Source: Alphaproteobacteria bacterium | Lineage (GTDB): Bacteria; Pseudomonadota; Alphaproteobacteria; MPNO01; VGEU01 | Assembly: GCA_016869145.1 (NCBI GenBank) | Contig: VGEU01000001.1 | Span: forward strand, 49,234-113,233 | Direction: 5' to 3' | DNA length: 64,000 bases | In this document: in pieces, positions 9,691 to 62,925 of the stretch | How the letters are laid out: the number at the start of each line of letters is the position of its first letter | How positions within the stretch are numbered: the first letter of the stretch is position 1 | Program-made: the position numbers and the translations under genes | Notes under the pieces: model-generated | What the model was told of the DNA's origin: nothing | Databases searched by the model: none | Seen by the model: the letters and a program-made list of their open reading frames with translations, nothing else

Positions 9691-9803
9691 GGCTCTCTCC
9701 CCGGGTCCTGGGCTCGGCGCAGTCTAGTGCAGGATGCCGCCGGAACGGAACGGGCCGCCGACTGTCGCCGGCGGCCCGCCTCGATCACGGTCGCATGACC
9801 GCT

Positions 9804-15867: not shown

Positions 15868-15954
15868 GCGATACCTCTGGCAAAAGCGGGTGGCGAAAGC
15901 GGGCGGAGCCGTCTCTTTACCCGAGGCGGCGCGGAACCGGAAGTGAGGAGGTTG

Positions 15955-35520: not shown

Positions 35521-36359
35521 GTGGCGGTCCCCAGCTCGGCAAGCGCACGGCGCACCAGCGTGAGCGCCGCGTCAAGGCGATAGTCCCTGGTGCCGCGCAC
35601 GTCGTCGATCGGCGCCAGAGGTTCGAGATGGCGTGCGGTCGCGACATCGGCAAGCGCGCGCCCGATCGGGCGGCCCGCGAGCGCGGCCTCAAGGAGTGGG
35701 AGCCGACGTGCGACCGGCGCGCAGGAGCCGACGGCGATGCGCGCGGCGCCGACCGTACCGTCCGCCGCGCGCTCGATCACGGCGGCCACCATCACGATCG
35801 AGATGACGAGATATCGTCGCGCGCCGAGCTTGAGGAACGTGCTCGTCGCGACCCCGCTCGGCTTCGGGATGCGGATCGCGGTGACGAGCTCGCCCGGCAT
35901 GCGGACCGTGCGCCGGTTGCCGATGATGAACTCGGTCAAGGGGACCCGGCGCGTCCCCCGCGCCGAGGCGAGCTCGACGGCGGCATCGAGCGCGATCAGG
36001 GCCGGCACGCCGTCGGCGGCCGGCGAGGCGTTGCAGATATTGCCCGCGATGGTGCCGGCGTTCTGGACTTGGATGCCCCCCACCTCGCGCGCGGCGAGCT
36101 TCAGGGTGCGAAACCAAGCCGGCAGGTCGGCCGCGATCAAGCCGCTCCAGGTGACCAGCGCGCCGATCCGGATGTGATCGCCGGCATCCTCGATCCGCCG
36201 GAGCTCGGCGAGCGCGGAGAGGTCGAGCACGTCCTCGTCGACCACGCGTCCGACCCGCGCCGGGTAGAAATCCGTGCCGCCCGCGACGATCGCCAACGGC
36301 CGTTCGCCGAGCGCGCGGACGGCCTCCTCGACAGCGGTGGGGCGGAGATAGAAACCCAT
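35517..36359 (-). CDS. FAD-binding medium subunit of a xanthine dehydrogenase-family hydroxylase (CoxM-like)
   Basis: Start at MGFYLRPTAVEEAVRALGERPLAIVAGGTDFYP. AGGTDF and GNICNASPAADG are typical FAD-binding motifs. It overlaps the next gene by 4 nt. Confidence 0.85.
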   Translation of the reverse strand: MGFYLRPTAVEEAVRALGERPLAIVAGGTDFYPARVGRVVDEDVLDLSALAELRRIEDAGDHIRIGALVTWSGLIAADLPAWFRTLKLAAREVGGIQVQNAGTIAGNICNASPAADGVPALIALDAAVELASARGTRRVPLTEFIIGNRRTVRMPGELVTAIRIPKPSGVATSTFLKLGARRYLVISIVMVAAVIERAADGTVGAARIAVGSCAPVARRLPLLEAALAGRPIGRALADVATARHLEPLAPIDDVRGTRDYRLDAALTLVRRALAELGTAT

Positions 36360-47060: not shown

Positions 47061-47279
47061 CGTCGCGCTCTCCCTTGGTCGATGCGAGCCGCGTCGGTAT
47101 GGCGGCGGCCCTGGCAGCCAGTCCAACTCATGTTCTCGAAGGCCGGACTATAACGTCTCATCGGCCTCGGGCAACGCCAAACGGCCGGCGATCGGCCGCG
47201 CCGAGCCGATCAAGTTGACTCGCTCAAGCGGCCCCTGCGATGGTGGCGACGCCGCCAACCGACAAGCTTGGAGTTCGCC

Positions 47280-48686
47280 ATGCCGCATACGCTCCGGTCG
47301 TTCCTCGACAACATCCATAACCGGATTCTCAACATCCACGATCCGGTGCGCCCGGAAACGCAGATCGGCATCCTGTGCTCGGAGAGCCGGAGCCCGCTGA
47401 TGTTCCACAATCTCGTCGGCTATCCCGGCTTCAAGCTGACCGACATCTTGATCAAGGACCGGCGCGGCCAGGCCGCCGCTCTTGGCCTCGACAACATCAA
47501 GGAGGTCTGCCCGTTCCTCGCCAAGCAGATGTCGGCCGGCCCCGGACGCTCCACCATCGTCAAAGACGGTCCGGTGAAGGAGGTCAAGCTGATCGGCAAG
47601 AACGCCGATATCCGTAAGCTTCCCATCCCGCAGCACAGCCACGGCGATGCCGGGCGCTATCTCGGCTCCGGCATCACGATCACCAAGGACCCCGAGACCG
47701 GCATCCGGAACGAGTCCATTCTCCGGATGCAGCTCACCGACGATCCGCACAAATGCCCGTTCTGGATGGCGGCACGACACAACTATAGCCACTATCTGAA
47801 ATACGTCGCGCGCGGGGAATCGATGCCGATGGCGTTCGCGATCGGCCTCCACCCGGTCTACGAGATCATTGCCAACTGGTCGGGTCGGCACGAGGACTTC
47901 GACGAGCTCGAATATGCGGCCGGCGTCCTCGGCGAGACGGTCGAGCTCGTGAAATGCGAGACCATCGACCTCGAGGTTCCGGCGCATGCCGAGATCGTCA
48001 TCGAAGGCCTCGTCCATCCGACCGAGCGCATGCCCGAGGGTCCGTTCGGCGAGTTCACCACCCTCGGCACCGGCGCCGAGGGACCGGCCCCGGTGTTCAC
48101 CGTGACCGCGATCACCCACCGCAAAGACCCGATCTTCCGCCACATGCAGGCGACGTGGTTCACCGACCACCAGCCGTTGATCACGCTTCCCATGGAGGCC
48201 GCCTATTACAACCGGCTGCGCGACACCCACGGCAACACCAAGGTCCTCGACGTGTTCGTGCCGCCCTGGGCGTCGCAGTTCATGATGGTGGTCCAGGTCG
48301 AGGCGAAATGGGACGGCCAGGTCACCGATATGCTCATGTCGGCGCTGTCGGGCCCCAACCTCCACGTCAAGGTCGCGATCGCCGTCGACGAGGACGTCGA
48401 TCTCTACAACGCCGAGGACGTCCTGTGGGCGATCGCCGCCCGCTGCAACCCGCAGACCGATGTCTGGGTGCATCCGAACTCGCGGCTCCACCCGCTCGAC
48501 GTCTCGATCCCGCAGATCGGCGACGAGTACACGGTGATGCGCGTCGGCGGCAAGCTCGCGATCGATGCGACCCGTCCGCCGACCTGGCGCAAGAAGGAGC
48601 GTGACAGTCTCGGCCGCGTCGATCCGATGGGCAAGCACGACCCGGCGATACAGAAGATCCTCGAGATGGTGCGCCTGCCGCGCTGA
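47280..48686 (+). CDS. UbiD-family (prFMN-dependent) decarboxylase, type B paralog
   Basis: Start at MPHTLRSF (RBS TTGGAG); 468 aa, with GRYLGSG, EGPFGEFTT and the UbiD fold. It is about 35% identical to the 55853-57295 gene. Confidence 0.85.
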   Translation: MPHTLRSFLDNIHNRILNIHDPVRPETQIGILCSESRSPLMFHNLVGYPGFKLTDILIKDRRGQAAALGLDNIKEVCPFLAKQMSAGPGRSTIVKDGPVKEVKLIGKNADIRKLPIPQHSHGDAGRYLGSGITITKDPETGIRNESILRMQLTDDPHKCPFWMAARHNYSHYLKYVARGESMPMAFAIGLHPVYEIIANWSGRHEDFDELEYAAGVLGETVELVKCETIDLEVPAHAEIVIEGLVHPTERMPEGPFGEFTTLGTGAEGPAPVFTVTAITHRKDPIFRHMQATWFTDHQPLITLPMEAAYYNRLRDTHGNTKVLDVFVPPWASQFMMVVQVEAKWDGQVTDMLMSALSGPNLHVKVAIAVDEDVDLYNAEDVLWAIAARCNPQTDVWVHPNSRLHPLDVSIPQIGDEYTVMRVGGKLAIDATRPPTWRKKERDSLGRVDPMGKHDPAIQKILEMVRLPR

Positions 48687-48739: not shown

Positions 48740-49957
48740 ATGACCTCGGCCGTCGCCCACGCCGACCATCGGGTCGAGAACAAGACGATCGGGTTCATCT
48801 CGATCGGGCATGCGATCAGCCATTTCTACATGCTGGTGCTGCCGCCGCTGTTCCCGGTCCTCAAGACCGAGTTCGACGTGAGCTGGGCGTGGCTCGGCGG
48901 CATCCTCACGCTCTCGGGCGTCGCGATGGGCGTGGCCCAGGTTCCGCTCGGGTTCCTGGTCGACAAGATCGGCGCGCGGCCGGTGCTGTTCTGGGGCTTC
49001 GGCATCATGGCCGGCGCGACGATGCTGTCGGGCTTCGCCGACACTTTCGTGCTCCTCCTCGTCCTCACCGTGATCGCCGGGCTCGGCAACTCGGTGTTCC
49101 ATCCGGCGGACTACGCGATCCTGTCGGCACGGATCCGTGGGCCCCGTCTCGGCCGCGCGTTCTCGGTTCATCTGTTCGCGTCCTATATCGGCTGGATGAT
49201 CGCGCCGGCGGTCATGATCGCCCTCAACGAGATCGTCGGCTGGCGCAACGCGCTGATCGTGACCGGCGCCGCCGGTCTCGTCTTCCTCGCCGTCATGATC
49301 TGGCAGCGCGACTGCGTCGACGACCGCAAGAACGTCGTCGCGCGCGGCAAGGACGCACCGGCGCCGATGACGCCGTTCGAGATGGTGCGCAACCCGCCCA
49401 TCCTTCTGTTCTTCCTGTTCTTCCTTCTGCTCGCACTCGGCGGCACCGGGCTCCACAGCTTCATCGTCACCTCGCTGGTCGAGCTCTACGGCGCCGATCT
49501 CCGCGTCGCCAACATCGCGCTCGCCGGTTTCTTCGCGGCCGGCGGCATCGGCATCCTCATCGGCGGCTACATCGCCGACAAGACCGACCGCCACGAGGAC
49601 GCGACCGCGATCGCCTATGTGATCGGCGCGGTCCTGATCGCCGCCGTCGCGTTTCCCGTGGTCGGCATCTGGGGTGCGGTCGCCCTCCTCTTCCTCGGCG
49701 GCCTCTTCAACGCCTGCGTCAGCCCCTCGCGCGACATCATGGTGCGGAACATCTCGCCACCGGGCCAGGTCGGGGCCGTGTTCGGGCTCGTCACCACCGG
49801 CTTCTCGGTCGGTGGCGCGATCGCCCCGGCGCTGTTCGGGTGGTTCAACGACATCGGCCATCCGCAATGGGTGTTCTGGTTCTCGGCGTTGACCTCGCTG
49901 CTCTCCATCCTCGCCGTCTATGCCGCCCAGATCGCGCACCGGCGCTCGCTCCGCTGA
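48740..49957 (+). CDS. MFS transporter
   Basis: 405 aa with 12 predicted TM helices and MFS motifs (GFLVDKIGARP). Confidence 0.85.
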   Translation: MTSAVAHADHRVENKTIGFISIGHAISHFYMLVLPPLFPVLKTEFDVSWAWLGGILTLSGVAMGVAQVPLGFLVDKIGARPVLFWGFGIMAGATMLSGFADTFVLLLVLTVIAGLGNSVFHPADYAILSARIRGPRLGRAFSVHLFASYIGWMIAPAVMIALNEIVGWRNALIVTGAAGLVFLAVMIWQRDCVDDRKNVVARGKDAPAPMTPFEMVRNPPILLFFLFFLLLALGGTGLHSFIVTSLVELYGADLRVANIALAGFFAAGGIGILIGGYIADKTDRHEDATAIAYVIGAVLIAAVAFPVVGIWGAVALLFLGGLFNACVSPSRDIMVRNISPPGQVGAVFGLVTTGFSVGGAIAPALFGWFNDIGHPQWVFWFSALTSLLSILAVYAAQIAHRRSLR

Positions 49958-50010
49958 TCGCGCCACCACTTGGCCGCTGACAAGCCCGGCCGAATCCCGC
50001 ACACTTCCGC

Positions 50011-50052
50011 GTCGTCCTGTGCCCGTCGTCCTGTGCCCGTCGTCCTGTGCCC
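50011..50052. repeat. Perfect tandem repeat 3 x 14 bp (GTCGTCCTGTGCCC) immediately upstream of the RBS of the TctC-like gene
   Basis: gtcgtcctgtgccc gtcgtcctgtgccc gtcgtcctgtgccc gtcatcc, read directly. The RBS GAGGAG is at about 50063. Confidence 0.85.
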
Positions 50053-50075
50053 GTCATCCGGTCGAGGAGTCCGTC

Positions 50076-51113
50076 ATGCGCCGCGCCTCTGCGTCGTTCA
50101 TCGCCGTCACCGCCTTGCTGAGCGGCGCCCTCGCGGCCGCCCCGCGTGCAGAGGCCGACGAGATCGCCGACTTCTTCAAGGGCAAGATCATCCGGATCAT
50201 CGTCGGCTTCGGCGAAGGCGGCGGCTACGATCTCTACGCCCGCTTCGCCTCCGAGCACATGGGCCGGTTCATCCCCGGCAACCCGACCATCGTCACCCAG
50301 AACATGCCGGGTGCAGGCAGCAAGCGCGCGGCGAAATTCGTCTACTCGGTCGCGCCCAAGGACGGCACCGTGTGGGGCATGGTGGCGCAATCGGTGCCGC
50401 ACGAGGCCGCGCTCGGCGACGCCGAGTTCGACTACGACGTCAACAAGTTCCAGTGGCTCGGCCGCATCACCTCGAACGTCGACGTCGGTGTCACTTGGCA
50501 CACCACCAATGTCCGGACCATCGCCGACGCCCAGGCGCGCCAGGTCGTCGTCGGCGGCACCGGCGCCGCCTCACCCTCGGTCCAGGTGCCCAAGGCGCTC
50601 AACCACATCCTCGGCACCCAGTTCAAGATCGTCACCGGCTACAAGGGCTCGGCCGATATCTCGCTCGCCATGGAGCGCGGCGAGGTCGACATGGTGGCCT
50701 CCATCGGCTGGCCGTCGATCAAGTCGACGCGGCCGCAATGGGTGCGTGACAAGCAGGTGAACTTCATCTATCAGACCGCGGTCGAGAAGCACCCCGAGCT
50801 TCCCAACATTCCGGCGCTCGGCGAGCTCGGCCGCAATGCCGACGAGACCGCGGTGCTCCACTTCATTGCCTCCTCTGCCGATATCGGCCGCGCGCTGTTC
50901 GCGCCCCCCGACACGCATCCGGGCCGGCTCGCGGCGCTGCGCAAGGCCTTCGACGCGATGGTCGCCGATCCCGTCGTCAAGGCCGACGCCGAGCGGCGGA
51001 ATGTCGACTTCGACACCGCGACCTGGCAGAAGCTGCAACAGCTCACCACCCAGATCGTAACGACGAAGCCCGAGGTGCTGGCCAAGGTGAAGGTCGCGCT
51101 TGACCAGAAATAG
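50076..51113 (+). CDS. Periplasmic solute-binding protein, divergent TctC/Bug-like family (paralog 3 of 3)
   Basis: Start at MRRASASFIAVTALLSGALAAAPRAEA (signal peptide). FFKGKIIRIIVGF, IPGNPTIVTQNMPGAGS and KIVTGYKGSADISLAMERGEVDM are shared with paralogs 1 and 2. Confidence 0.85.
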   Translation: MRRASASFIAVTALLSGALAAAPRAEADEIADFFKGKIIRIIVGFGEGGGYDLYARFASEHMGRFIPGNPTIVTQNMPGAGSKRAAKFVYSVAPKDGTVWGMVAQSVPHEAALGDAEFDYDVNKFQWLGRITSNVDVGVTWHTTNVRTIADAQARQVVVGGTGAASPSVQVPKALNHILGTQFKIVTGYKGSADISLAMERGEVDMVASIGWPSIKSTRPQWVRDKQVNFIYQTAVEKHPELPNIPALGELGRNADETAVLHFIASSADIGRALFAPPDTHPGRLAALRKAFDAMVADPVVKADAERRNVDFDTATWQKLQQLTTQIVTTKPEVLAKVKVALDQK

Positions 51114-51159
51114 GCCTGTCCGACACCGGCCGCGACAACCGCAGAAAGGAGCCCGGACC

Positions 51160-52053
51160 ATGTCCGCGACATTGTCCGACCGACCGAACGACGCCGATCT
51201 GAAGTCCCTCATGCCGCCACGCGCCGCACTGCACGCCCAGATCGATGCGTGGCTCAGGGAGGACATCGGCCGGCTCGACATCACGACCGAGTACATGATC
51301 CCGCGCGATGCGCGGGCCGAGTTCGTGATGAACACCCGCCACGACATCGTCGTCTGCGGCATCGACATCGCGGCGGAGGTGTTCCGCTTTCACGTGCCGG
51401 AGGCCGCGATCCAGATCCTGATGACGGATGGCACACGCGCGACCAAGGGCCAGGCGCTCTTGAAGGTGAGCGGGCCGGCACGCGGGCTTCTCACCGCCGA
51501 GCGGACCGCGCTCAACGTCCTCCAGTTCCTGACCGGGATCGCGACCCTGACGGCGCGCTATGCCGATCTCGTCAAGGGCACGCCGGCGACCCTCATCGAC
51601 ACCCGGAAGACGCTCCCCGGCTATCGCGCGCTCTCCAAATACGCGACCGTCGTCGGCGGCGCGCGGAACCATCGCATCCGCCTCGACGACGGCATCATCA
51701 TCAAGGACAACCACATCGCGGTGTGCGGCTCGATCACCGCCGCCGTCGCCCGCGCCCGCGCGCTGACGCCCTCGCTCACCAAGATCGAAGTCGAGTGCGA
51801 CACGCTCGCGCAGGTCGCCGAGGCCGCCGCCGCCAAGGCCGACGTCATCATGCTCGACAACATGGACGCCGCCATGATGCGCGAGGCGGTGAAGATCGTC
51901 GCCGGCCGCGCCGAGCTCGAGGCCTCGGGCGGCATCACGCTCGAGACCATCCGCGACAAGGCGATGACGGGCGTCGACTACATCTCGGTCGGACGCATGA
52001 CCCAGTCGGCGCCGGCCGCCGACATCGGGCTCGATGTGCATCTGATGGTGTGA
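51160..52053 (+). CDS. nadC: Nicotinate-nucleotide pyrophosphorylase [carboxylating] (quinolinate phosphoribosyltransferase)-family protein
   Basis: Start at MSATLSDRP (RBS AAAGGAG); 297 aa. The NadC signature LREDIGRLDITTEYMI is present, plus the KDNH catalytic region (IIIKDNHIAVCG) and GGITLETI. It is not flanked by nadA or nadB. Confidence 0.85.
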   Translation: MSATLSDRPNDADLKSLMPPRAALHAQIDAWLREDIGRLDITTEYMIPRDARAEFVMNTRHDIVVCGIDIAAEVFRFHVPEAAIQILMTDGTRATKGQALLKVSGPARGLLTAERTALNVLQFLTGIATLTARYADLVKGTPATLIDTRKTLPGYRALSKYATVVGGARNHRIRLDDGIIIKDNHIAVCGSITAAVARARALTPSLTKIEVECDTLAQVAEAAAAKADVIMLDNMDAAMMREAVKIVAGRAELEASGGITLETIRDKAMTGVDYISVGRMTQSAPAADIGLDVHLMV

Positions 52054-52058
52054 GCCCC

Positions 52059-52625
52059 ATGGCGTCATCGCGTCTGCCGCGCCGGCGCGCGCTCTGCCTG
52101 TTCTGCGGCGCCTCGGAGAAGTTCCCGCCGAGCTTCCGTGCCGCCGCCGAGGCGCTCGGCGCTGGCTCTGTCCGGAACGGCTGGCGGCTCGTCTATGGCG
52201 GCAGCCGGTCCGGGCTGATGGGCGCCGCGGCGCGCGCGGCGATGGCGGCGGGCGGCGAGGTGATCGGCGTCCGCCCGCGCGGCCTCATCGCGGCGGAAAT
52301 GCCGGCCGCCGAGATCACCGAGCAGATCCACGTCGACACATTCCATGAGCGCAAGGCCGTGATGGCGGCGCTCGCCGACCACTTCGTCGCGCTGCCGGGC
52401 GGGCTCGGCACGCTCGATGAGGTGAGCGAGATGATGAACCTCGCCGTCACCGGCATCCAGGCCCAGCGAACCTGGTTCCTCGATATCGATTCCTATTGGC
52501 GCCCGCTGATGGCGCTGTTCGCCCACTTCGATTCCTACGGCGCGTCGCGGCCGGGCTTCGAGGCCACCTATGCCGCCGTCGAGAGCGTCGATGCGCTGTT
52601 CGCCGCGCTCGACCCGAAACGCTGA
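52059..52625 (+). CDS. LOG-family nucleotide 5'-monophosphate phosphoribohydrolase (TIGR00730 Rossmann-fold protein)
   Basis: Start at MASSRLPRRRALCLFCGAS, 5 nt after the nadC stop. VYGGSRSGLMGAAA...PGGLGTLDE matches LOG-family motifs (GGGxxGLMG; PGGxGTxEE). Confidence 0.8.
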   Translation: MASSRLPRRRALCLFCGASEKFPPSFRAAAEALGAGSVRNGWRLVYGGSRSGLMGAAARAAMAAGGEVIGVRPRGLIAAEMPAAEITEQIHVDTFHERKAVMAALADHFVALPGGLGTLDEVSEMMNLAVTGIQAQRTWFLDIDSYWRPLMALFAHFDSYGASRPGFEATYAAVESVDALFAALDPKR

Positions 52626-52643
52626 CCGAGGGAACGAGACGCC

Positions 52644-53621
52644 ATGGTCCGACGTCGGTTGTTGCTCGCCGTGCTCGCGCTCGCAGGCGGTCTTGCCGTC
52701 GCCGGCGCGGCGAACGCCCAGGCCTATCCGACCAAGCCGGTCCGCATCCTCAACGGCTTCGCCGCCGGCGGCGCGCAGGACCTCCTCGGGCGGATCATCG
52801 CCGATCATCTGTCGAAGGCGCTCGGCCAGCCCTTCATCGTCGAGGCCAAGCCCGGCGCCGGCGGGATCGTCGCCGGCCAGATCCTGATCGCCTCGCCCGC
52901 GGACGGCCACACGCTCTATGTCGTGAGCCCCGGCATCATCGCGACCGCCCGGGCGATGAACGACAACATGACCTATGACCCGGCGACCGCCTTCGCGCCG
53001 GTCACCGTCCTCGCCGAAGCGCCGATGATCATCCAGATCGCCGCCGACATTGCGATGACGACCGTCAAGGACTTCATCGCCTATGGCAAGGCCAACCCGA
53101 CCAGGCTCAATCACGGTTCGCCCGGCGTCGGCACGGTGCCGCATCTCGCCGCCGAGCTGTTCCGCGCGCGCCTGGGGTTCGAGAGCGTCCATATTCCGTT
53201 CCGCGGCCAGGGGCCCTTCACCCAGGCCATCCTCCAGCGCGAGGTGCAATGGGGGTTCGGCGCGCCGATCTCGGCCCTCGCCGCGCTCCGCGGCAATAAT
53301 GGGCGGCTGATCGCCGTCACCAGCCGGACCCGCTGGTCGGCCGCGCCCGACGTGCCGACGCTCGCCGAGCTCGGCTTCGAGGACAGCGTGTGGTCGGTGT
53401 GGAACGGCCTTGTCGCGCCGGCCGGAACCCCGACCGCGATCATCGACCGCCTCGCCGGCGAGATCGCCCTCGCGATGAAGGACCCGGCCACCATCACGCG
53501 CATCCAGAACTCGGGCTACGAGCCGTGGACGCTGAGCCCGGCCGAGACGGCGCGGTTCTTCGAGGCCGAGCGGGCGCGCTGGTCGGCGGTCGCGAAGGCC
53601 AACAATATCAAGGCGGAATAG
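52644..53621 (+). CDS. Tripartite tricarboxylate transporter substrate-binding protein (canonical TctC/Bug family)
   Basis: 325 aa with a signal peptide; AYPTKPVRILNGFAAGGAQDLLGRIIADHLSKALGQPFIVEAKPGAGG is the typical Bug/TctC signature. Confidence 0.9.
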   Translation: MVRRRLLLAVLALAGGLAVAGAANAQAYPTKPVRILNGFAAGGAQDLLGRIIADHLSKALGQPFIVEAKPGAGGIVAGQILIASPADGHTLYVVSPGIIATARAMNDNMTYDPATAFAPVTVLAEAPMIIQIAADIAMTTVKDFIAYGKANPTRLNHGSPGVGTVPHLAAELFRARLGFESVHIPFRGQGPFTQAILQREVQWGFGAPISALAALRGNNGRLIAVTSRTRWSAAPDVPTLAELGFEDSVWSVWNGLVAPAGTPTAIIDRLAGEIALAMKDPATITRIQNSGYEPWTLSPAETARFFEAERARWSAVAKANNIKAE

Positions 53622-53692
53622 ACTATCATTTGACACCGACCGCCGACTGACGCATGTGAGGCGGGCACGGATCGACACTTTGGGAGAGAGCG

Positions 53693-55204
53693 ATGGCGAA
53701 GTCCCTGCGGGACATAGTCCCCGGCGGCAAGTCTGCGAGCAACCTTCAAGCTGTCCTGCCGTACAAGGACTTGCGGCAATGGCTTGAGGAAGCGAAGAAG
53801 CTCGGCGAGGTCGTCATCGCCAAGGGCCTCGGTGTCGAGGAGGAGATCGGCGCCGCCGCCGAGATGGTGATGCAGCGCGACGATGCGCCTTGCGTCGTGT
53901 TCGACGAGATCCCGGGCTACCCCAAGGGCCATCGCGTGCTCGTCAATTTCTTCGGCGGCAAGCGCAAGAACATGACGCTCGGCTTCCCAACCGAGCTTTC
54001 GAAGATCGACCTCTCGGAGGCCTACTACTCCAGCCAGATCAAGGAATTGCCGTCGATCCCTCACGTTATCGTCGAGAGCGGTCCGGTGACCGAGAACATC
54101 AAGGAGGGCGATGCGATCGACGTCACGGCCTTCCCGGCGCCGATGTGGCATCCGGCCGATGGCGGCCGCTATCTTGGCACCGGTTCATATGACGTCACCA
54201 TCGATCCCGATTCGCGGTGGATGAACCTCGGCACCTACCGCGTCATGGTGATGGATAAGAAGACGGTCGGCTTCTACATCTCGCCGGGCAAGCACGGCCG
54301 GGTCCATCGAGACAAGTGGATGGCGCGCGGCGAGCCGATGCCGGCGGTGATCGTCTGCGGCGGTGACCCGATGACCTTCCTCGCCGCCTGCACCGAGATG
54401 CCGCAGGGTCAGTGCGAGTACGACATCGTCGGCGGCATGCGCGGCGAGGCGCTCAAGTGCATCAAGGGCAAATACACCGGCATTCCCTTCCCGGCCGACG
54501 CCGAGATCGTGATCGAGGGCTTCGTCGACCCCAGGGAGCGCCGCCCCGAAGGGCCGTTCGGCGAGTGGACCGGCTATTACGGCTCCGACATGCGCGACGA
54601 GCCGGTGATGCATGTGAAGGCGGTCTATCACCGCAACAACCCGATCATCCTCGGCTGCCCGCCGCAGCGCCCGCCCGACGAGATGTGCCGCTATCGCGCC
54701 ATCACGCGCTCGGCGATGCTCCGCTCCAATGTCGAGAAGGCGGGTGTGCCCGATGTCGCCGCCGCCTGGGCGCATGAGGTCGGCAACGCGCGGATGCTCC
54801 TCGGCATCGCGATCAGGCAGCGTTATCCCGGCCACGCCAAGCAGGCCGGCCATGTCGCCGCGATGTGTCATGTCGGCGCCTATGCCGGCAAATATGTCGT
54901 GGTGACCGACGAGGACATCGACGTGTCGAACCTCGAGGAGCTCACCTGGGCGATGCTCACCCGCTCCGATCCCGCGACCTCGATCGACATCATCCATGGC
55001 GCCTGGTCGACGCCGCTCGATCCGCGCATTCCGCCCGACGAAAAGAAGAAGGGTAACATGACCAACAGCCGGGCGATCATCGACGCCTGCCGGCCCTTCC
55101 ATTGGCGGAACGAGTTCCCCAAGGTCAACGCCCCCTCGCCCGAGGAGGCGCGCCGGGCGCGCGAGCGCTTCGGCTATCTCCTCGAGGGCAAGGACAAGCC
55201 CTAG
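53693..55204 (+). CDS. UbiD-family (prFMN-dependent) decarboxylase, type A paralog 1
   Basis: 503 aa, with GGRYLGTGSY, EGPFGEWTGYYG and the C-terminal HAKQAGH...TDEDIDV. It is about 70% identical to the 57376-58884 gene, with long stretches identical at the DNA level in inverted orientation. Confidence 0.9.
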   Translation: MAKSLRDIVPGGKSASNLQAVLPYKDLRQWLEEAKKLGEVVIAKGLGVEEEIGAAAEMVMQRDDAPCVVFDEIPGYPKGHRVLVNFFGGKRKNMTLGFPTELSKIDLSEAYYSSQIKELPSIPHVIVESGPVTENIKEGDAIDVTAFPAPMWHPADGGRYLGTGSYDVTIDPDSRWMNLGTYRVMVMDKKTVGFYISPGKHGRVHRDKWMARGEPMPAVIVCGGDPMTFLAACTEMPQGQCEYDIVGGMRGEALKCIKGKYTGIPFPADAEIVIEGFVDPRERRPEGPFGEWTGYYGSDMRDEPVMHVKAVYHRNNPIILGCPPQRPPDEMCRYRAITRSAMLRSNVEKAGVPDVAAAWAHEVGNARMLLGIAIRQRYPGHAKQAGHVAAMCHVGAYAGKYVVVTDEDIDVSNLEELTWAMLTRSDPATSIDIIHGAWSTPLDPRIPPDEKKKGNMTNSRAIIDACRPFHWRNEFPKVNAPSPEEARRARERFGYLLEGKDKP

Positions 55205-55228
55205 GCCATCGACCGGACGGCCCAAGGC

Positions 55229-55254
55229 AAAGGGCGGCCCGCGGGCCGCCCTTT
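55229..55254. terminator. Bidirectional GC hairpin (AAAGGGCGGCCC-gc-GGGCCGCCCTTT) between the convergent UbiD and rhodanese genes
   Basis: Perfect 12-bp inverted repeat with flanking T-rich sequence (tttgtcgtt). Confidence 0.65.
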
Positions 55255-55278
55255 GTCGTTCCGGTTCGCGGCCGCGAC

Positions 55279-55653
55279 CTATTTGTCGACCGCGCCGCCG
55301 CCCTCGGCCCAGTCCTTGAACGCGCCGAGATTGAAGACCCGGCCATAGCCCATCTCCTTGAGGACATGGCCGGCGAGCGCCGAGCGCCCGCCGGAGGCGC
55401 AATAGACGAGGACCGTCTTGGCCCGGTCGAAATTCTTGTCGTGATAGGGCGAATCCGGATCGGCGCGGAACTCGAGCATGCCGCGCGAAACATGGACCGC
55501 GCCGGCCACCTTGCCGGTGTTGGCGACCTCGGCCGCATCGCGGACGTCGACGACGAGCGTCCCGCCTTTGGCGATCATCGCCTGCGCGTCCGCCGGCGTG
55601 ACCCGCGGCACCGCGGCATTGGCCGCCTCCATCATCGACTCCACCGTCTTCAT
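55279..55653 (-). CDS. Single-domain rhodanese-like sulfurtransferase
   Basis: Start at MKTVESMMEAANA (RBS GGAGGGA); 124 aa, with the active-site loop CASGGRS (CxxGxR). Confidence 0.8.
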   Translation of the reverse strand: MKTVESMMEAANAAVPRVTPADAQAMIAKGGTLVVDVRDAAEVANTGKVAGAVHVSRGMLEFRADPDSPYHDKNFDRAKTVLVYCASGGRSALAGHVLKEMGYGRVFNLGAFKDWAEGGGAVDK

Positions 55654-55852
55654 CGTGTCCCTCCGGTCTGGTTGATCATCAACGGGAGAATATGGTGCGC
55701 CGGCGCGGCTGCGAATAGCCCGAGCGGCCGCGAACGTGATCTGGTGCACGGTCTCCCGGTCAGAACACGGCGTCCCGGTTCGCGATGCGACCCGATGAAC
55801 GCCCGGAGACGGCGTCGATGCATGTCGGGTCGCCGCATCGTGCGAGCGCCGT

Positions 55853-57295
55853 TCACCCGAACACGTCGGGGAACTTGGCACGCACCGCTCGGGCGAGCTC
55901 GGGCGAGGTCTGGGCGACCTTTGGGAAGGTCTCGAGCCGCTCATAGGGGATGCAGGCGTCGATGACGGCGCGGCTGTTGTAGAGCTCCTTCCCCGTCACC
56001 ATCGGGTCGAGGCGCGAGGACCAGGTCTTGGTCAGGATCTGGATGTCCTGTTTCGGGTCCGAGCGCGTCCCCATCGCCCAGATGACGTCGTGGATGTCGG
56101 AGGGGTCGATATCTTCGTCGACGACGACGATGTAGCGCCCGACATAGCCGACCGGGTTGACCTGCGAGGCGACCATGCCGACCTGGGTCGAGTGGCCGAA
56201 ATAGCGCTGGCGGATCGCGACGACGACGAAGGTGCGCCCCGAGCCCGCCTGGTGCACCCACACGCCCTTGACGTCGGGAATGCCCGCGCCCTCGAGCGAG
56301 TCCATCAACGCCGCCGAGCGGATGAAGCAACGCTCGAACAGATGCGAGTGCGGCGGCTTCTGGCTCGCGGCGCAGGTGAGGATCGGGTCGTTCCGCCAAT
56401 AGGCCGCTTTGATCCGGATCAGCGGCTCCATCTTGGCGTCGCCCGCGTAATAGCCGGTCCATTCGCCGAACGGACCTTCCAGCACCTGCTCGTCCGGAAC
56501 GCACTCGCCCTCCAGCACGATCTCGGACTGCGCCGGGATCGGCAGACCCGTGATCGGGCCGGGCACGCAATCGATCGGCGCGCCGGCGATGCCACCCGCC
56601 CAATCGAGCTCGGCAACCGTGTCGGCGAGCGTGTAGCGCGCGGCGATGTAGCTCACGGGATCGATGCCGACCACGATCGCCATCGGGCACGGCTTGCCGC
56701 TCTTGAAGTATTTGTCGCGATGGATGCGGCCCTGCTTGCCGTTCGAGATGTAGGACGCGCAGCTATTGCCCGAGATCACCTGCACGCGATAGGTGCCCAT
56801 GTTGATGCGCCCGGTATCCGGATCGCGGGTGATGACGGCGCACGCGGTCCCGATATAGCGCCCGCCGTCGAGCTCGTGGTGGATCGGCACCGGAAACTTG
56901 AGGAGATCGACCGCCGCGCCTTCGGCGATGTTCTCCATCACCGGGCCGCGCTCGACCATGCGTGGCGGGATCGGCTTGTTGGTCTTGATCTGCTTGCGGA
57001 ACTGGTCGAGGAGCGCCATGCGGTCGCGGCTCGCGACGCTCGCATCGAGACCGAAGCCGAGCGCGAGCCGGAAGGGCGAGCCGAGCATGCCGTAGATGCA
57101 GCGGAAGCCCTTGGGATAGCCCGGAATGTCGTCGAAGAGTAGGAGCGGCGAGCGATCGACCTTCTCGCGGTAGAGCACCTCGGTGACCGCACCCATCTCC
57201 TTGTCCCAATGGGCCCGGTTCACCGTCTTGAGCTCGCCGCCCTTCTCGACCGCGGCGAGAAAGGCGCGGAGATCGGTTTGCACCGCGTTGCTCAT
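55853..57295 (-). CDS. UbiD-family (prFMN-dependent) decarboxylase, type B paralog
   Basis: 480 aa, with GGRYIGTACAV, EGPFGEWTGYYAG and the UbiD fold. Confidence 0.9.
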   Translation of the reverse strand: MSNAVQTDLRAFLAAVEKGGELKTVNRAHWDKEMGAVTEVLYREKVDRSPLLLFDDIPGYPKGFRCIYGMLGSPFRLALGFGLDASVASRDRMALLDQFRKQIKTNKPIPPRMVERGPVMENIAEGAAVDLLKFPVPIHHELDGGRYIGTACAVITRDPDTGRINMGTYRVQVISGNSCASYISNGKQGRIHRDKYFKSGKPCPMAIVVGIDPVSYIAARYTLADTVAELDWAGGIAGAPIDCVPGPITGLPIPAQSEIVLEGECVPDEQVLEGPFGEWTGYYAGDAKMEPLIRIKAAYWRNDPILTCAASQKPPHSHLFERCFIRSAALMDSLEGAGIPDVKGVWVHQAGSGRTFVVVAIRQRYFGHSTQVGMVASQVNPVGYVGRYIVVVDEDIDPSDIHDVIWAMGTRSDPKQDIQILTKTWSSRLDPMVTGKELYNSRAVIDACIPYERLETFPKVAQTSPELARAVRAKFPDVFG

Positions 57296-57375
57296 GGGCT
57301 CGTCCTCCCTCGACTACGCGAAGGGGCGGATCGACGACCCGCCCCTCCCGGTCCCATCGCCTGCACCGCGCCGGC

Positions 57376-58884
57376 TCACTTGGTGAGCCAGCCCCATTTC
57401 TCGCGCGCTTCCTTGGCGAGCTCGGGCGACGGCGCGTTGACCTTCGGGAACTCGTTCCGCCAATGGAAGGGGCGACAGGCGTCGATCACGGCGCGGCTGT
57501 TGGTGAAATTGCCCTTCGCCTTGTCCTCCGGCGAGATGCGCGGATCGAGCGGCGTCGACCAGGCGCCATGGATGATGTCGATCGAGGTCGCGGGATCGGA
57601 GCGGGTGAGCATCGCCCAGGTCAGCTCCTCGAGGTTCGACACGTCGATGTCGTCGTCGGTGACGACGATGTATTTCCCGGCATAGGCGCCGACGTGACAC
57701 ATCGCGGCGATGTGCCCAGCCTGCTTGGCGTGACCGGGATAACGCTGCTTGATCGACACCGCGACCAGCATGCGCGCGGTGCCGACCTCGTGCAGCCAGG
57801 CGGCGGTGACATCGGGAACGCCGGACTTGGCGATGTTCTCCTTGAGGAGCGCCGAGCGGGTGACCGCGCGATAGCGCGCGAGCTCGTCGGGCGGGCGCTG
57901 CGGCGGGCAGCCGAGAATGATCGGGTTGTTGCGGTAATAGATCGCCTTGATGTCGAGCACTGGCTCCTCGCGGTGCTTGGAGCCGTAATAGCCCGTCCAC
58001 TCGCCGAACGGCCCCTCTTCGCGCATGTTGCCCGGGCGCACGAAGCCCTCGATCACGATCTCGGCGTTGGCCGGGAACGGCAGCCCGGTATGCTTGCCGA
58101 GAACGACGTCGATCGGCTTGCCGCGGAAGCCGCCGACCACGTCGTACTCGCAGACATTCGGCGGTATCTCGCTGCAGCCCATGAGGAACGTCATCGGATC
58201 GCCGCCGCACACGATCACCGCCGGCATCGCCTCGTTGCGCTGCATGTACTTGTCGCGGTGGATGCGGCCGTGCTTGCCGGGCGAGATGTAGAACCCGACC
58301 GATTTCTTGTCGTGGATCATCACCCGGTAGGTGCCGAGATTGAGCCAGCCGGTGTCGGGGTCCTTGGTGACGTTGTAGCTGCCGGTGCCGATATAGCGGC
58401 CGCCGTCGTCGTCGTGCCAGAGCGGCGTCGGGAACGCGTTCACGTCGACCGCATCGCCCTCCATGATGTTCTCGGTCACCGGGCCCGCTGCGACCACGCG
58501 CGGCGGAATCAGCCGGAGATCCTCCATGTAGTTGTGCCGGAACGCATCCGTGAGCTCGATCTTGTTGAGCTCGGACGGGAAGCCGAGCGTCATGTTCATG
58601 CGCCGGCCGGAGAAGAAGTTGCACAGAACGCGCGAGCCCTTGATCGTGCCGGGCACGTCCTCGAACACGACGCAGGGCGCCTTCTCATCGTGCAGGATCA
58701 CCTCGGCCGCCATGCCGATGTCGCGCTGCCAGGACGCGCCCTTGACGAACTTCACCTCGCCGAGCTTCTCGGCCTCGGTCAGCCAGCCGCGAAGATCGTC
58801 ATAGGGAATGCGGAGCTCGTTGGCCCGATCGCTGCTGCCGGTCGCGGCGAGCTTGCCGATCGCGTTGCCCATGTCGTCGACCAT
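57376..58884 (-). CDS. UbiD-family (prFMN-dependent) decarboxylase, type A paralog 2 (inverted duplicate of the 53693-55204 gene)
   Basis: 502 aa. Its C-terminal half is nearly identical to that of the 53693-55204 gene (PAVIVCGGDPMTFL ... GHAKQAGH ... RPFHWRNEFPKVNAPSPE). Confidence 0.9.
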   Translation of the reverse strand: MVDDMGNAIGKLAATGSSDRANELRIPYDDLRGWLTEAEKLGEVKFVKGASWQRDIGMAAEVILHDEKAPCVVFEDVPGTIKGSRVLCNFFSGRRMNMTLGFPSELNKIELTDAFRHNYMEDLRLIPPRVVAAGPVTENIMEGDAVDVNAFPTPLWHDDDGGRYIGTGSYNVTKDPDTGWLNLGTYRVMIHDKKSVGFYISPGKHGRIHRDKYMQRNEAMPAVIVCGGDPMTFLMGCSEIPPNVCEYDVVGGFRGKPIDVVLGKHTGLPFPANAEIVIEGFVRPGNMREEGPFGEWTGYYGSKHREEPVLDIKAIYYRNNPIILGCPPQRPPDELARYRAVTRSALLKENIAKSGVPDVTAAWLHEVGTARMLVAVSIKQRYPGHAKQAGHIAAMCHVGAYAGKYIVVTDDDIDVSNLEELTWAMLTRSDPATSIDIIHGAWSTPLDPRISPEDKAKGNFTNSRAVIDACRPFHWRNEFPKVNAPSPELAKEAREKWGWLTK

Positions 58885-59374: not shown

Positions 59375-61711
59375 TCAAGCCGCGCGCTCTGCCGCGGCGA
59401 TGGCCCGCCACACGGTCTCGGCCGTGACCGGCATGTCGATCGCCGTGATCCCGAGCGGCGCGAGCGCATCGATCACCGCGTGGACGACCGCCGGCAATGC
59501 CCCGACGGTTCCGGCCTCGCCGGCCCCCTTGAGGCCGAGCGGATTGGTGCGGCACGGCACCTCGTTGGTCTCGATCGTGATCGGGCAGAAATCATCGGCG
59601 CGCGGCATCGCGTAGTCCATGAACGATCCCGAGAGCAGCTGACCGCTCGCCGGGTCGTAGGCGACGGTCTCCATCAGGGCTTGGCCGACGCCCTGCGCGA
59701 TGCCGCCGTGCACCTGGCCGTGGAGGAGAAGCGGGTTGACGACGCGCCCGACATCGTCGACCGCCGCGTAGCGGACGATCTCGATGCGGCCCGTCTCGGG
59801 GTCGATCTCGACCTCGACGATGTGGCAGCCATTGGGAAAGCTCGGCGGGCCGGTCACGAACGTGCCGGCCTCGTCGAGGCCCGGCTCCATGTCGCCCGGC
59901 AGGAGATCGGGGCGATAGGCGGCACGGGCAATCTCGGTGATCGCGATCGCGCGATCTGTTCCCGCAACCGTGAACCGGCCGGCGTCGTAGACGATGTCCT
60001 CGGGCGCCGCCTCGAGCCGGTGCGCCGCGATCCGGCCGGCCTTCGCCACCATCTTGGCGACGGCGTTCGCGATCGCGTTTCCGATCAGCGTCATCGAACG
60101 CGAGCCACCGGTGCCGCGCCCGAACGAGACGATATCGGTATCGCCCTGGACGAACCGGATCGCGTTCATCGGCACCCCGAACGCGGCCGCGACCATTTGC
60201 GGAAACACGGTCTCGTGCCCCTGACCGTTCGACATCGAGCCGACGATCAGCGTGATGTGGCCGGACGGGTCGAAGCGGATCTGGGCGCGGTCGTCGGTCT
60301 GGCCGGCGCAGCGCTCGATATAGTTCGCGATGCCGATGCCGCGGAGCCGCCCGCGTTCGCGCGCTTCGGTGCGGCGCGCGGGGAAGCCGTCCCAGTCTGC
60401 GATCGTCTTGGCGCGCGCCATGTTGGCCGCGAACTCGCCCGAGTCGTAGGTGAAGATCAACCCGGTCTTGAACGGCATCGCCTCGGGTGGGATGCAGTTC
60501 CGCCGGCGCAGCTCCGACGGATCGAGGCCGAGCTCGCGCGCCGCCTGGTCGACGACGCGCTCGATCACGTAGATCGCCTCCGGGCGGCCGGCACCGCGAT
60601 AGGGACAGGTCGAGTTGTTGTTGGTGAGGACGCCCGTCACCGCGACCGTGATCGCGGGTGTCGTGTAGACACCGGCGAGCATGCCGAGGCCGGTGACCGG
60701 CACGAAGGCGCCGAGATTGGCCACATAGGCCCCGACCGAGGCGAGCGTCGCGACGCGGAGCGCGAGGAACCGGCCGTCGGCATCGAGCGCGAGCTCGGCG
60801 GTCGAGACGTTGTCGCGCGCGTGGGCATCGCTCATCAGCGATTCCGATCGGTCGGCGATCCATTTGACCGGCCGCCCGCCGATCCGCCGCGAGGCGAGGA
60901 GGAGAAGGGGATACTCGGCATACATGTTGCCGCCCTTCATCCCGAACGAGCCGCCGAAATCGCGGCAGATGATGCGGATGCGGTTCTCCGCGATCTTCAG
61001 GATGTCCTGGGCGAGTTGCTGACGCGTGCGGTGCGGCCCCTGCAGCGGCGCATGCAGAAGATAGCGGTCCTCGGCCGCGTCCCACACGCCGATCGCGCCA
61101 CGCGTCTCCATCGGGTTGGCCGAGACACGGTTGTTGACGATCCGAACGCGCGTCACGTGCGCGGCGCGTGCGAAGGCGGCGTCGACCTTGGCGACATCGC
61201 CGGCGACGTGCTCGAAGGCGATGTTGCGCGGCGCCTCGTCCCAGACCAGCGGCCGGCCCGGATCGGTCGCGGTCGCCGTGTCGGTGACGGCGGGCAGCGG
61301 CGCATAGTCGACCTCGACCCACTCGGCGGCATCGCGCGCCGCCTCGGCCGTCTCGGCGACGATGCAGGCAAGCGCGTCGCCGACATGGCGCACCCGGTCG
61401 CCGGCGAGCAGCGGGCGGGTCGGGAGAATGCTCGTGGTCCCCGGCTTGGGTCGCGGGGCGACCTGGACCGGGATGTGCCCGAGACCCTCGGCCTCGACAT
61501 CGGCCGCGGTCAGCACCAGGAGGACACCGGGCGCCGTCGCGGCGCGTTCGGTGCGGAGCGCACGGACCCGGGCGTGGGCGTGCGGCGAGCGGACGAACAC
61601 GGCATGGGTCATGGCGGGCATGCGGACATCATCGACATAGAGCCCGCGTCCGGTCAGGAGCCTCGGGTCCTCGGTCCGCGGGACCGGCTGCCCGAACCCG
61701 AACTTCTCCAT
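59375..61711 (-). CDS. Xanthine dehydrogenase family molybdopterin-binding large subunit (orphan)
   Basis: Start at MEKFGFGQPVPRTEDPRLLTGRGLYVDD; 778 aa, with GGSFGMKG, GAGRPEA and QVHGGIAQG motifs. Confidence 0.85.
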   Translation of the reverse strand: MEKFGFGQPVPRTEDPRLLTGRGLYVDDVRMPAMTHAVFVRSPHAHARVRALRTERAATAPGVLLVLTAADVEAEGLGHIPVQVAPRPKPGTTSILPTRPLLAGDRVRHVGDALACIVAETAEAARDAAEWVEVDYAPLPAVTDTATATDPGRPLVWDEAPRNIAFEHVAGDVAKVDAAFARAAHVTRVRIVNNRVSANPMETRGAIGVWDAAEDRYLLHAPLQGPHRTRQQLAQDILKIAENRIRIICRDFGGSFGMKGGNMYAEYPLLLLASRRIGGRPVKWIADRSESLMSDAHARDNVSTAELALDADGRFLALRVATLASVGAYVANLGAFVPVTGLGMLAGVYTTPAITVAVTGVLTNNNSTCPYRGAGRPEAIYVIERVVDQAARELGLDPSELRRRNCIPPEAMPFKTGLIFTYDSGEFAANMARAKTIADWDGFPARRTEARERGRLRGIGIANYIERCAGQTDDRAQIRFDPSGHITLIVGSMSNGQGHETVFPQMVAAAFGVPMNAIRFVQGDTDIVSFGRGTGGSRSMTLIGNAIANAVAKMVAKAGRIAAHRLEAAPEDIVYDAGRFTVAGTDRAIAITEIARAAYRPDLLPGDMEPGLDEAGTFVTGPPSFPNGCHIVEVEIDPETGRIEIVRYAAVDDVGRVVNPLLLHGQVHGGIAQGVGQALMETVAYDPASGQLLSGSFMDYAMPRADDFCPITIETNEVPCRTNPLGLKGAGEAGTVGALPAVVHAVIDALAPLGITAIDMPVTAETVWRAIAAAERAA

Positions 61712-61788
61712 GCCCCGCCCTTCGTCCCGCCGGTGGTCTGATGCCACGGCGCATTGTACGGTGGCCGCCGCGTCGGGAGGAAGAACGC

Positions 61789-62925
61789 ATGACGGAGGTC
61801 GATCGCGGCGGCGGCCTGCTCCGGGCCGCGGCGCGGGCGCGCGAGGCGCATGGCTTCGCCGCGCGCCGCCTCGTCGATGCCGATCTCCGCCTCGTCGAGC
61901 TCGCGTTCTGGGACGAGATCGGCGATTTCGTCCCCGACCGCGTGATGCGCAACCTCGCGCTGGTGCGCCGCCCCGGCCGACCCGGGCTCCTGCCCCCGCC
62001 GGCGGGTTGGACCGATCTCGCCGGCCGCATGGTGCGGGAGGACGTGGCCGCGGCGCGCGCCGCCTGGCAGGGCAATGGCCACGCCGCGCCCGGCCTCCTC
62101 CGCCGCACCATGGCGGCCTTCGGCGTCGAGGCCGCGATCGTCGTGCCGACCGCCCTTCTCTTCCTCGGCGTCCACCCGCAGCCCGAGGTCGAGGTCAACC
62201 TCGCCCGTGCCTATAACCGCTGGGCCGTCGCGCGCCTCGCCGGCGAGGCCGGGCTCCGGCCGTTCCTGATCCTGCCATTCAACGTGCCGGAGGCGTGCGC
62301 GGCGATCGTGGCGGAGTTCGGCGCCGCCGACGGGATCGCCGGCTTCCTGGTCCCCGTGATGCGCACGCGTGGCATCCACGACAACGCCTACGCCCGCGCC
62401 TATGCCGCGATCGAGGAACGCGCGCTCCCGCTCGCCTTCCACGCCGCGTGGCACTGGACCGAGAGCGCGACACACCAGGCGAACCGTTTCCTCTCGGTCT
62501 ACGCGACCCAGCCGGCGCAGACGCTCGCGGTGCAGGCCACGCACTGGATCGTCAACGCGGTGCCCGAGCGTTTCCCCCGGCTCCGCGTGGTGTGGATGGA
62601 AGGCGGCCTCGCCTGGATCCCGTTCCTCGCCCAGCGCCTCGACACCGCCTACCGCGCACGCCCGTCGGAGGCACCCGGCCTGACGCGGCTCCCGAGCGAA
62701 TATCTCTGCGCCATGCATTTCGCGACACACCCGTGCGACGTCGACGAAGCGGGCCTCGCCGATGTCGTCGCCCGTGTCGGCGTCGATACGCTCCTCTGGT
62801 CGTCCGGCTATCCGCAGTGGAACTTCGATGGGCCGGCCTGGATCGACGGGGCCGCCGCGCTCGACGAGGCCGCGCGCGCGGCGATCCTCGGCGGCAACGC
62901 CCGGCGGCTGTTCGGCCTCGCCTGA
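61789..62925 (+). CDS. Amidohydrolase_2 (ACMSD-family)-like protein with substituted metal-binding and catalytic residues; a putative non-catalytic paralog
   Basis: From MTEVDRGG. It aligns along its length with the 8452-9690 protein (PEVEVNLARAYNRW; GIHDNAYARAY; PERFPRLRVVWMEGGLAWIPFLAQRLD; LPSEYL). However, the N-terminal D-S-H-H is replaced by D-L-R-L, and SDYPHWD by SGYPQWN. Confidence 0.65.
   Translation: MTEVDRGGGLLRAAARAREAHGFAARRLVDADLRLVELAFWDEIGDFVPDRVMRNLALVRRPGRPGLLPPPAGWTDLAGRMVREDVAAARAAWQGNGHAAPGLLRRTMAAFGVEAAIVVPTALLFLGVHPQPEVEVNLARAYNRWAVARLAGEAGLRPFLILPFNVPEACAAIVAEFGAADGIAGFLVPVMRTRGIHDNAYARAYAAIEERALPLAFHAAWHWTESATHQANRFLSVYATQPAQTLAVQATHWIVNAVPERFPRLRVVWMEGGLAWIPFLAQRLDTAYRARPSEAPGLTRLPSEYLCAMHFATHPCDVDEAGLADVVARVGVDTLLWSSGYPQWNFDGPAWIDGAAALDEAARAAILGGNARRLFGLA

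Follow-up and report, generated by a model that had tools for sequence, protein, structure and literature searches.

We analyzed a 64,000-nt stretch of a metagenome-assembled genome (MAG) contig from an alphaproteobacterium (contig VGEU01000001.1), hereafter called the window; all positions are given in window coordinates. The subject is a trio of genes of the UbiD family. Two of them, A1 and A2, lie in opposite orientation and bracket a third, B, together with a small rhodanese gene (Table 1). This arrangement had been described in a first-pass annotation of the sequence and is borne out here, with both A1 and A2 being intact genes. The same annotation took the pair for the product of a recent inverted duplication or of ongoing gene conversion and regarded the enclosed segment as a potentially invertible cassette.

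Table 1. Features of the UbiD locus and its surroundings in the window
Feature	Position	Strand	Remarks
TctC-family binding protein gene	52644-53621	+	Adjoins A1 upstream
UbiD paralog A1, 503 aa	53693-55204	+	Pfam UbiD and UbiD_C; TIGR00148 above cutoff; final gene of the same-strand NadC-LOG-TctC-UbiD run; orthologs at 85% (L001), 82% (P0055/L092), and about 79% (Defluviicoccus-type MAGs)
Inverted repeat I1, arm 1	54080-55144		Inside A1; 1,065 nt, ungapped, 81%
Conversion tract, A1 copy	54914-55029		115/116 identical to the A2 copy; lone mismatch at 54943
Possible second converted patch	55094-55119 (A1 copy); 57446-57471 (A2 copy)		26-nt exact run; weak evidence
GC-rich hairpin, 14 bp	55226-55257		Between the convergent A1 and rhodanese genes
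Single-domain rhodanese, 124 aa	55279-55653	-	Pfam Rhodanese; variable small gene of the segment
UbiD paralog B, 480 aa	55853-57295	-	Pfam; inside the bracketed segment
UbiD paralog A2, 502 aa	57376-58884	-	Pfam UbiD and UbiD_C; same strand as B and upstream of it; orthologs at 91% (P0001/L085), 83% (P0002/L087), and dozens more at 75-84%
Inverted repeat I1, arm 2	57421-58485		Inside A2; 1,065 nt, ungapped, 81%
Conversion tract, A2 copy	57536-57651		Reverse complement counterpart of 54914-55029
Small DUF6460 gene			Between A2 and the molybdenum-hydroxylase gene
Molybdenum-hydroxylase large subunit	59375-61747	-	
Catabolic-island genes (fourth UbiD, molybdenum-hydroxylases, others)	47154-48686; 1-2238; 13516-15954; 32764-35571; 59375-61747; 8452-9723; 61741-62925		

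Extent and age of the A1/A2 homology

When A1 was aligned with the reverse complement of A2, the homology ran from end to end of the genes, with 75% nucleotide identity in a global alignment and 68.5% identity between the proteins. Identity rises along the genes, from 63.5% in the 5' third to 77.8% in the middle third and 82.5% in the 3' third. The first-pass annotation was thus right about a diverged 5' third, but its statement that the 3' halves are almost identical did not hold: these are 80.8% identical, or 77.3% once one short tract is removed, and near-identity is limited to 116 nt. It had also named less than 80% identity over the whole length as the level at which its own reading should be given up, and the whole-gene value falls below that. 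No A1/A2 homology extends past the coding sequences, as the 200-nt flanks scored at shuffle level. The remaining inverted pairs returned by the repeat search (23 to 114 nt at 70 to 94% identity) look like shared UbiD motifs or chance matches between GC-rich sequences.

The near-identical antisense peptides that had been cited as a sign of nucleotide-level duplication are real (open reading frames [ORFs] 54880-55128 on the minus strand and 57209-57685 on the plus strand; 88% identity over 82 amino acids). Their likeness mirrors the best-conserved 250 nt of the genes, and the antisense frame is most likely not a gene but a consequence of high GC content. Relatives likewise have an open antisense frame where the conserved C-terminal region of UbiD is encoded (contigs L001, 3390-3701, and L092, 3853-4164, both on the minus strand). 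At their 3' ends, B (55892-55979) and A2 (57415-57502) share 35- to 36-nt stretches at 81 to 89% DNA identity, with the motif NSRAVIDAC. B is only 44% identical to A2 as a protein (and 44% to A1), yet it shows such local DNA likeness, an example of how far codon bias and motif conservation can together lift local identity.

Each copy has its own orthologs in other genomes, and the duplication is therefore old. These orthologs reach 85% identity for A1 and 91% for A2 (Table 1). Among 145 compared proteins, A1 ranked only 68th among the neighbors of A2, and more than 60 proteins were nearer to A2 than A1 is. The ratio of nonsynonymous to synonymous substitution (dN/dS) against orthologs was 0.20 to 0.26 for A1 and 0.13 to 0.25 for A2 (0.13 to 0.26 overall), so both genes are under purifying selection. 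The proportion of synonymous differences (pS) was 0.376 between the paralogs and 0.34 to 0.37 between orthologs. Since these values are alike, synonymous sites are saturated under codon bias. The GC content at third codon positions (GC3) of the genome is ~0.88, and early saturation at this level explains why 74% of the amino acids common to A1 and A2 use the same codon all along the gene. The rise in identity from the 5' to the 3' end is also seen across genomes (from 0.50 to 0.94 between A1 of L001 and A2 of L085), which makes it a property of the family and not a mark of homogenization within this genome. The gradient reflects a conserved C-terminal domain combined with strong GC3 codon bias.

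A recent inverted duplication of one UbiD gene that diverged from its 5' end would account for inverted homology over the full gene length. It does not fit the identity levels and saturated synonymous sites, the number of proteins nearer to A2 than A1 is, or the fact that other lineages have A1 and A2 orthologs laid out alike. It is refuted by the finding that either copy has orthologs of its own, and we consider a recent duplication next to impossible.

A short tract of near identity

The near-identical tract (Table 1) consists of exact runs of 29 nt and 86 nt. Within positions 54917-55030, A1 and A2 differ from each other at 2 sites, whereas A1 differs from its L001 ortholog at 16, A2 differs from its L085 ortholog at 10, and the two orthologs differ from each other at 16. 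Similarly, pS in the tract is 0.07 between A1 and A2 and 0.31 to 0.66 in the other comparisons. The paralogs are here closer to each other than either is to its own ortholog, the pattern that ectopic gene conversion leaves. In a Sawyer-type test, 30 consecutive polymorphic sites agreed between the window genes; this was the strongest signal among 28 pairs, and none of 5000 permutations reached it. Quartet sites gave a similar picture, with 11 sites grouping the window genes and 4 grouping the orthologs in 54917-55125, compared to 24 and 176, respectively, outside this region (Fisher p = 4e-7). The longest exact run in any other A1/A2 or ortholog pair compared, including ortholog pairs at 84 to 88% identity, was 53 nt (versus 86 nt in the window pair). 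The codon CCC at 54973 is common to the window A1 and A2 and was found in no other sequence compared. On this evidence, we conclude that the 116-nt tract is the product of a short intragenomic (ectopic) gene conversion that took place after the split from the L001 and L085 lineages, and we infer that it was made by RecA-type recombination.

The tract lies in the most conserved segment of the protein, and its identity might instead be due to chance and codon bias or to nucleotide-level selection, such as on an embedded RNA or regulatory element. In keeping with this, the tract amino acids are invariant across A1, A2, and two further A2 orthologs, same-codon use is high throughout the gene, and a simple run test on synonymous codons yielded only p = 0.03. 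However, orthologs with nearly the same peptide (proportion of nonsynonymous differences in the tract, 0.01 to 0.08) differ at 10 to 19 synonymous tract sites, so no nucleotide-level constraint is apparent. The CCC codon unique to the window pair and the permutation result also speak against it. We therefore find it very unlikely that the identity arose without conversion.

The tract is 90.5 to 91.4% identical to the A2 ortholog in L085 and 87 to 88% identical to the A1 ortholog in L001. Baseline ortholog identities differ likewise, and these values lean only weakly toward a conversion of A2 into A1. A second, smaller patch may also have been converted (Table 1). In the first nine-sequence alignment, positions 55096, 55102, 55106, and 55107 were unique to the window pair; after L087 was added, its A2 ortholog was seen to share the RNE codons, and the unique sites went down to two. 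In the second genome with both genes (A1 in L092 and A2 in L087), the same tract had an identity of 0.86 and a longest exact run of 35 nt, with no clear conversion. The lack of a comparable tract in that organism indicates that the tract is specific to the window lineage. The ongoing gene conversion proposed earlier thus stands for the 116-nt tract, and possibly for the 26-nt patch, and falls for the 3' half as a whole.

In the A1 gene of L001, the region equivalent to 54892-54934 contains agreement runs of 15 to 19 polymorphic sites with A2-type genes of several genomes (permutation p, 0.0002 to 0.004). These runs hint at A1/A2 exchange in this part of the gene in other lineages as well.

Since the window comes from a MAG contig, a metagenome assembler could have collapsed or swapped reads of the two paralogs and so created the tract. 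We compared the window with contigs from four assemblies, made from four other samples with two pipelines (L081 to L084). All four match the window at 99.97 to 100% identity. L081 (window 62144-55843) has 1 mismatch in 6,302 nt, and L084 (window 52099-55393) has 1 mismatch in 3,295 nt, both of them outside the UbiD genes. The two Logan contigs, L082 (window 57565-55000) and L083 (window 57621-55843), are 100% identical to the window. The two ends of L082 lie in the two copies of the 86-nt run, exactly 30 nt deep in each, and L083 breaks off where the A2 copy has its outer edge. In favor of an artifact, short-read graphs are indeed interrupted by the repeat. The contig ends have the look of a k-mer graph stopped by an exact inverted repeat, and they independently confirm that repeat in other samples. 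The Logan assemblies presumably used a k of 31, which would fit the 30-nt overhang. Given that independent assemblies reproduce the sequence and that L081 and L084 each read through one copy, an assembly artifact is barely credible.

Orientation of the bracketed segment

The window, L001, and the organism represented by L092 and the P0002 contig share the layout A1> <small gene <B <A2, and L085 is compatible with it. L001 reads TctC-TctC-A1> <DinB <B and stops just before A2 would start, whereas L085 reads A2> B> DinB> before the contig end. In the third organism, L092 carries A1> PqiA-like> <B, and the P0002 contig carries A2> B> <PqiA-like <A-type. The lineages that keep the orientation are 82 to 91% identical at the protein level. 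The A2>B tandem is also found in L085, the P0002 contig, L097, and L113. Among the 80 loci returned by a genome-contig scan with A1, only L001 has the window layout.

Only the small middle gene varies. It encodes a rhodanese in the window, a DinB protein in L001 (3820-4341) and L085 (13239-13760), and a PqiA-like membrane protein in L092 (4330-4695), where it lies on the A1 strand. The start of the window rhodanese gene, as read from the sequence, is an ATG with GGAGG ahead of it, and a product of 124 amino acids is also called on contig L082. A 221-amino-acid ORF, which would overlap B, was rejected for this gene.

A more distant lineage, L096 (2781-5240), has B followed 35 nt on by a convergent A-type gene that is nearer to A2 (80%) than to A1 (74%). 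This locus carries little weight, having only 74% DNA identity to the other loci compared and an A-type gene truncated where the contig stops; the arrangement is either what a past inversion would leave or simply another layout.

In the invertible-cassette scenario of the first-pass annotation, a crossover in the tract would flip 55030-57535 and thereby exchange the terminal ~56 codons between A1 and A2, with B and the rhodanese gene ending up behind TctC-A1; both orientations would coexist in the population. Several features speak for this scenario: the 86-nt exact and 116-nt near-exact inverted repeat is present, the conversion tract shows that the copies have paired at least once, and the I1 core is ungapped over its 1,065 nt, so that any crossover there would stay in frame. 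Gene conversion is also known from the inverted tufA/tufB paralogs of Salmonella (PMC5485169). We found no positive evidence for inversion. The scanned predicted genes and ORFs of the 64-kb window gave no Pfam match to a recombinase, integrase, or transposase, which could be encoded elsewhere in the genome. Short specific inverted-repeat sites were not found at the segment borders, and the sole substantial inverted repeat is the A1/A2 coding homology. Besides the window, L081 and L084 are the only contigs that run through a whole repeat copy and have unique sequence at either side of it; they read MoCo-DUF6460-A2-B and LOG-TctC-A1-rhodanese tail, respectively, and are both parental and nonchimeric. 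No chimeric A1/A2 protein was present in the 90%-identity clusters, in which the A1 cluster holds A1 alone and the A2 cluster holds two more members, both with A2-type C-termini. A search for the exact 86-mer in a metagenome contig collection gave no match, the collection evidently being without the source samples.

The orientation is, moreover, conserved across the lineages compared. Outside the tract, the arms are only about 77 to 80% identical. Such divergence is strongly antirecombinogenic when mismatch repair is active, so crossovers should be rare. Inversion by a crossover within the 86-bp exact repeat is mechanistically possible, but we hold coexisting orientations to be highly unlikely. 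The same low probability applies to the idea that the 116-bp tract has been kept identical because homologous recombination inverts, at low frequency, the 2.5-kb segment that carries B and the rhodanese gene, as a recombinase-free metabolic switch. If true, each flip would make A1 and A2 trade their C-terminal tails and would shift B and the rhodanese gene from one operon to another.

Very probably, A1 and A2 are old inverted paralogs with one short gene-conversion tract, and the locus is no programmed DNA switch but a cluster of catabolic genes in a fixed arrangement. In this reading, A1 and A2 are functional paralogs of a UbiD-family (prenylated flavin mononucleotide [prFMN]-type) decarboxylase that separated long ago and that flank B and a small variable gene, one on each strand. 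Their DNA likeness comes mostly from the conservation of the proteins, strongest in the C-terminal domain, to which a genome GC3 of about 88% adds by capping synonymous divergence at about 0.35 to 0.38. After the split from the nearest sequenced relatives, one short nonreciprocal recombination copied about 116 nt, possibly along with a second small patch.

Several points weigh against this interpretation. The region for the Fisher test was picked after inspecting the data, and the permutation test takes polymorphic sites as exchangeable, while the tract is the most conserved part of the protein. Just two contigs beyond the window span a repeat copy, and an orientation variant in a few percent of cells would not show in consensus assemblies. 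A perfect inverted repeat of 86 bp is long enough for a RecA-dependent crossover. Finally, the A2-like gene convergent with B in L096 shows that, within the family, this layout has been rearranged at least once.

Catabolic setting and parallels in known systems

A1, A2, and B match PF01977 and PF20696 in Pfam and reach TIGR00148 scores of 260 to 276 bits, compared to a cutoff of 244.85. Together with a fourth UbiD protein of the window (47154-48686), they score above cutoff only for this generic UbiD family model. The best specific NCBIfam model for the three is phenyl_P_beta with 281 to 287 bits, and the equivalog cutoffs are 469 and 565 bits. The closest solved structure is PhdA (PDB 7PDA; E values of 1.3e-103 for A1 and 3.3e-95 for B). 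A1, A2, and B all contain the motifs EGPFGEWTGYY and GTYRV, which would correspond to the E277/E282 and R173 positions of Fdc1. No Flavoprotein/UbiX domain was found among the scanned window genes; UbiX may be encoded elsewhere in the genome.

The same-strand run that ends with A1 (49920-55204) encodes a TctC-like protein, NadC (quinolinate phosphoribosyltransferase, above the NCBIfam equivalog cutoff), a LOG/TIGR00730 phosphoribohydrolase, TctC, and A1. A TctC-NadC-LOG-UbiD module recurs in the P0003 contig, as compared by gene lists only, and NadC lies near A1 or B in L092, L094, L095, and L097. The run may convert a pyridine dicarboxylate via its nucleotide to the free base. Our literature search found no report on gene clusters combining UbiD and quinolinate phosphoribosyltransferase. 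Downstream of A1, the RNA fold of the hairpin (55200-55285) has an energy of -47.8 kcal/mol (z, -3.6; 0 of 200 shuffles as good). The hairpin is bordered by an A-run and a T-run and is probably a bidirectional terminator, and a simple promoter and terminator scan gave no signal above the shuffle expectation.

The window as a whole holds four molybdenum-hydroxylase large subunits (one of them fused to 2Fe-2S domains), two Amidohydro_2 genes, two hydantoinase_B genes, and transporter genes of the TTT, TRAP, and MFS types. It is predicted to be a catabolic island for (hetero)aromatic carboxylic acids. The conserved three-UbiD cluster with NadC and LOG may represent an undescribed pathway for N-heteroaromatic polycarboxylates, which seems likelier than a switch that flips at low frequency.

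The recombination history of the locus has a well-studied counterpart. In Salmonella enterica, the inverse-orientation paralogs tufA and tufB, separated by 762 kb and with 12 differences in 1,185 nt, undergo nonreciprocal exchange in contiguous tracts that are shortened by mismatch repair, and conversion takes place about once per 10^5 to 10^6 generations (PMC5485169). A1 and A2 are likewise inverted paralogs on one chromosome with contiguous nonreciprocal exchange. Unlike the tuf genes, they are 75% identical, lie 2.2 kb apart, and have been homogenized in just one ~116-nt tract; conversion has been occasional and local and has not led to gene-wide concerted evolution. The pairing of tufA and tufB also occasionally yields a crossover that inverts the chromosome between the genes. 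The locus further resembles programmed invertible elements (Hin/Gin-type systems, the fim switch, shufflons, and Bacteroides invertons) in having a segment between inverted repeats and, like shufflons, in the possibility that gene 3' ends are exchanged. Known DNA switches depend on a dedicated site-specific recombinase, usually encoded nearby, and on short specific sites. At the UbiD locus, in contrast, the repeats are diverged coding sequences, the 64 kb gave no recombinase match, and one orientation was seen.

Two characterized UbiD systems are relevant to function. Within the UbiD family, the best structure match for A1 and B is PhdA, which decarboxylates phenazine-1-carboxylate in Mycobacterium fortuitum; this likeness at the sequence level is compatible with N-heteroaromatic carboxylate substrates. 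The gene context at our locus (NadC, LOG, TctC, and molybdenum hydroxylases) differs from that of phenazine degradation genes. The alpha and beta subunits of phenylphosphate carboxylase are two UbiD paralogs in one enzyme and set a precedent for adjacent paralogs acting as a heteromer. By analogy, one could speculate that an A2-B heteromer explains the conserved A2-B tandem. The scores of A1, A2, and B lie far below the equivalog cutoffs, and no genes for gamma or delta subunits were identified.

As an old paralog pair with a small conversion scar, A1 and A2 exemplify a well-known evolutionary process, and the question as originally posed matters little. The locus does carry a caution: high-GC paralogs at about 70% protein identity look younger at the DNA level, and antisense ORFs mirror the likeness. 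The lead for further work is the convergent A1/B-A2 UbiD trio itself, which is found in at least three lineages, repeatedly with a true NadC, a LOG-family hydrolase, TctC, and molybdenum hydroxylases. This trio may mark an uncharacterized catabolic route for heteroaromatic carboxylic acids.

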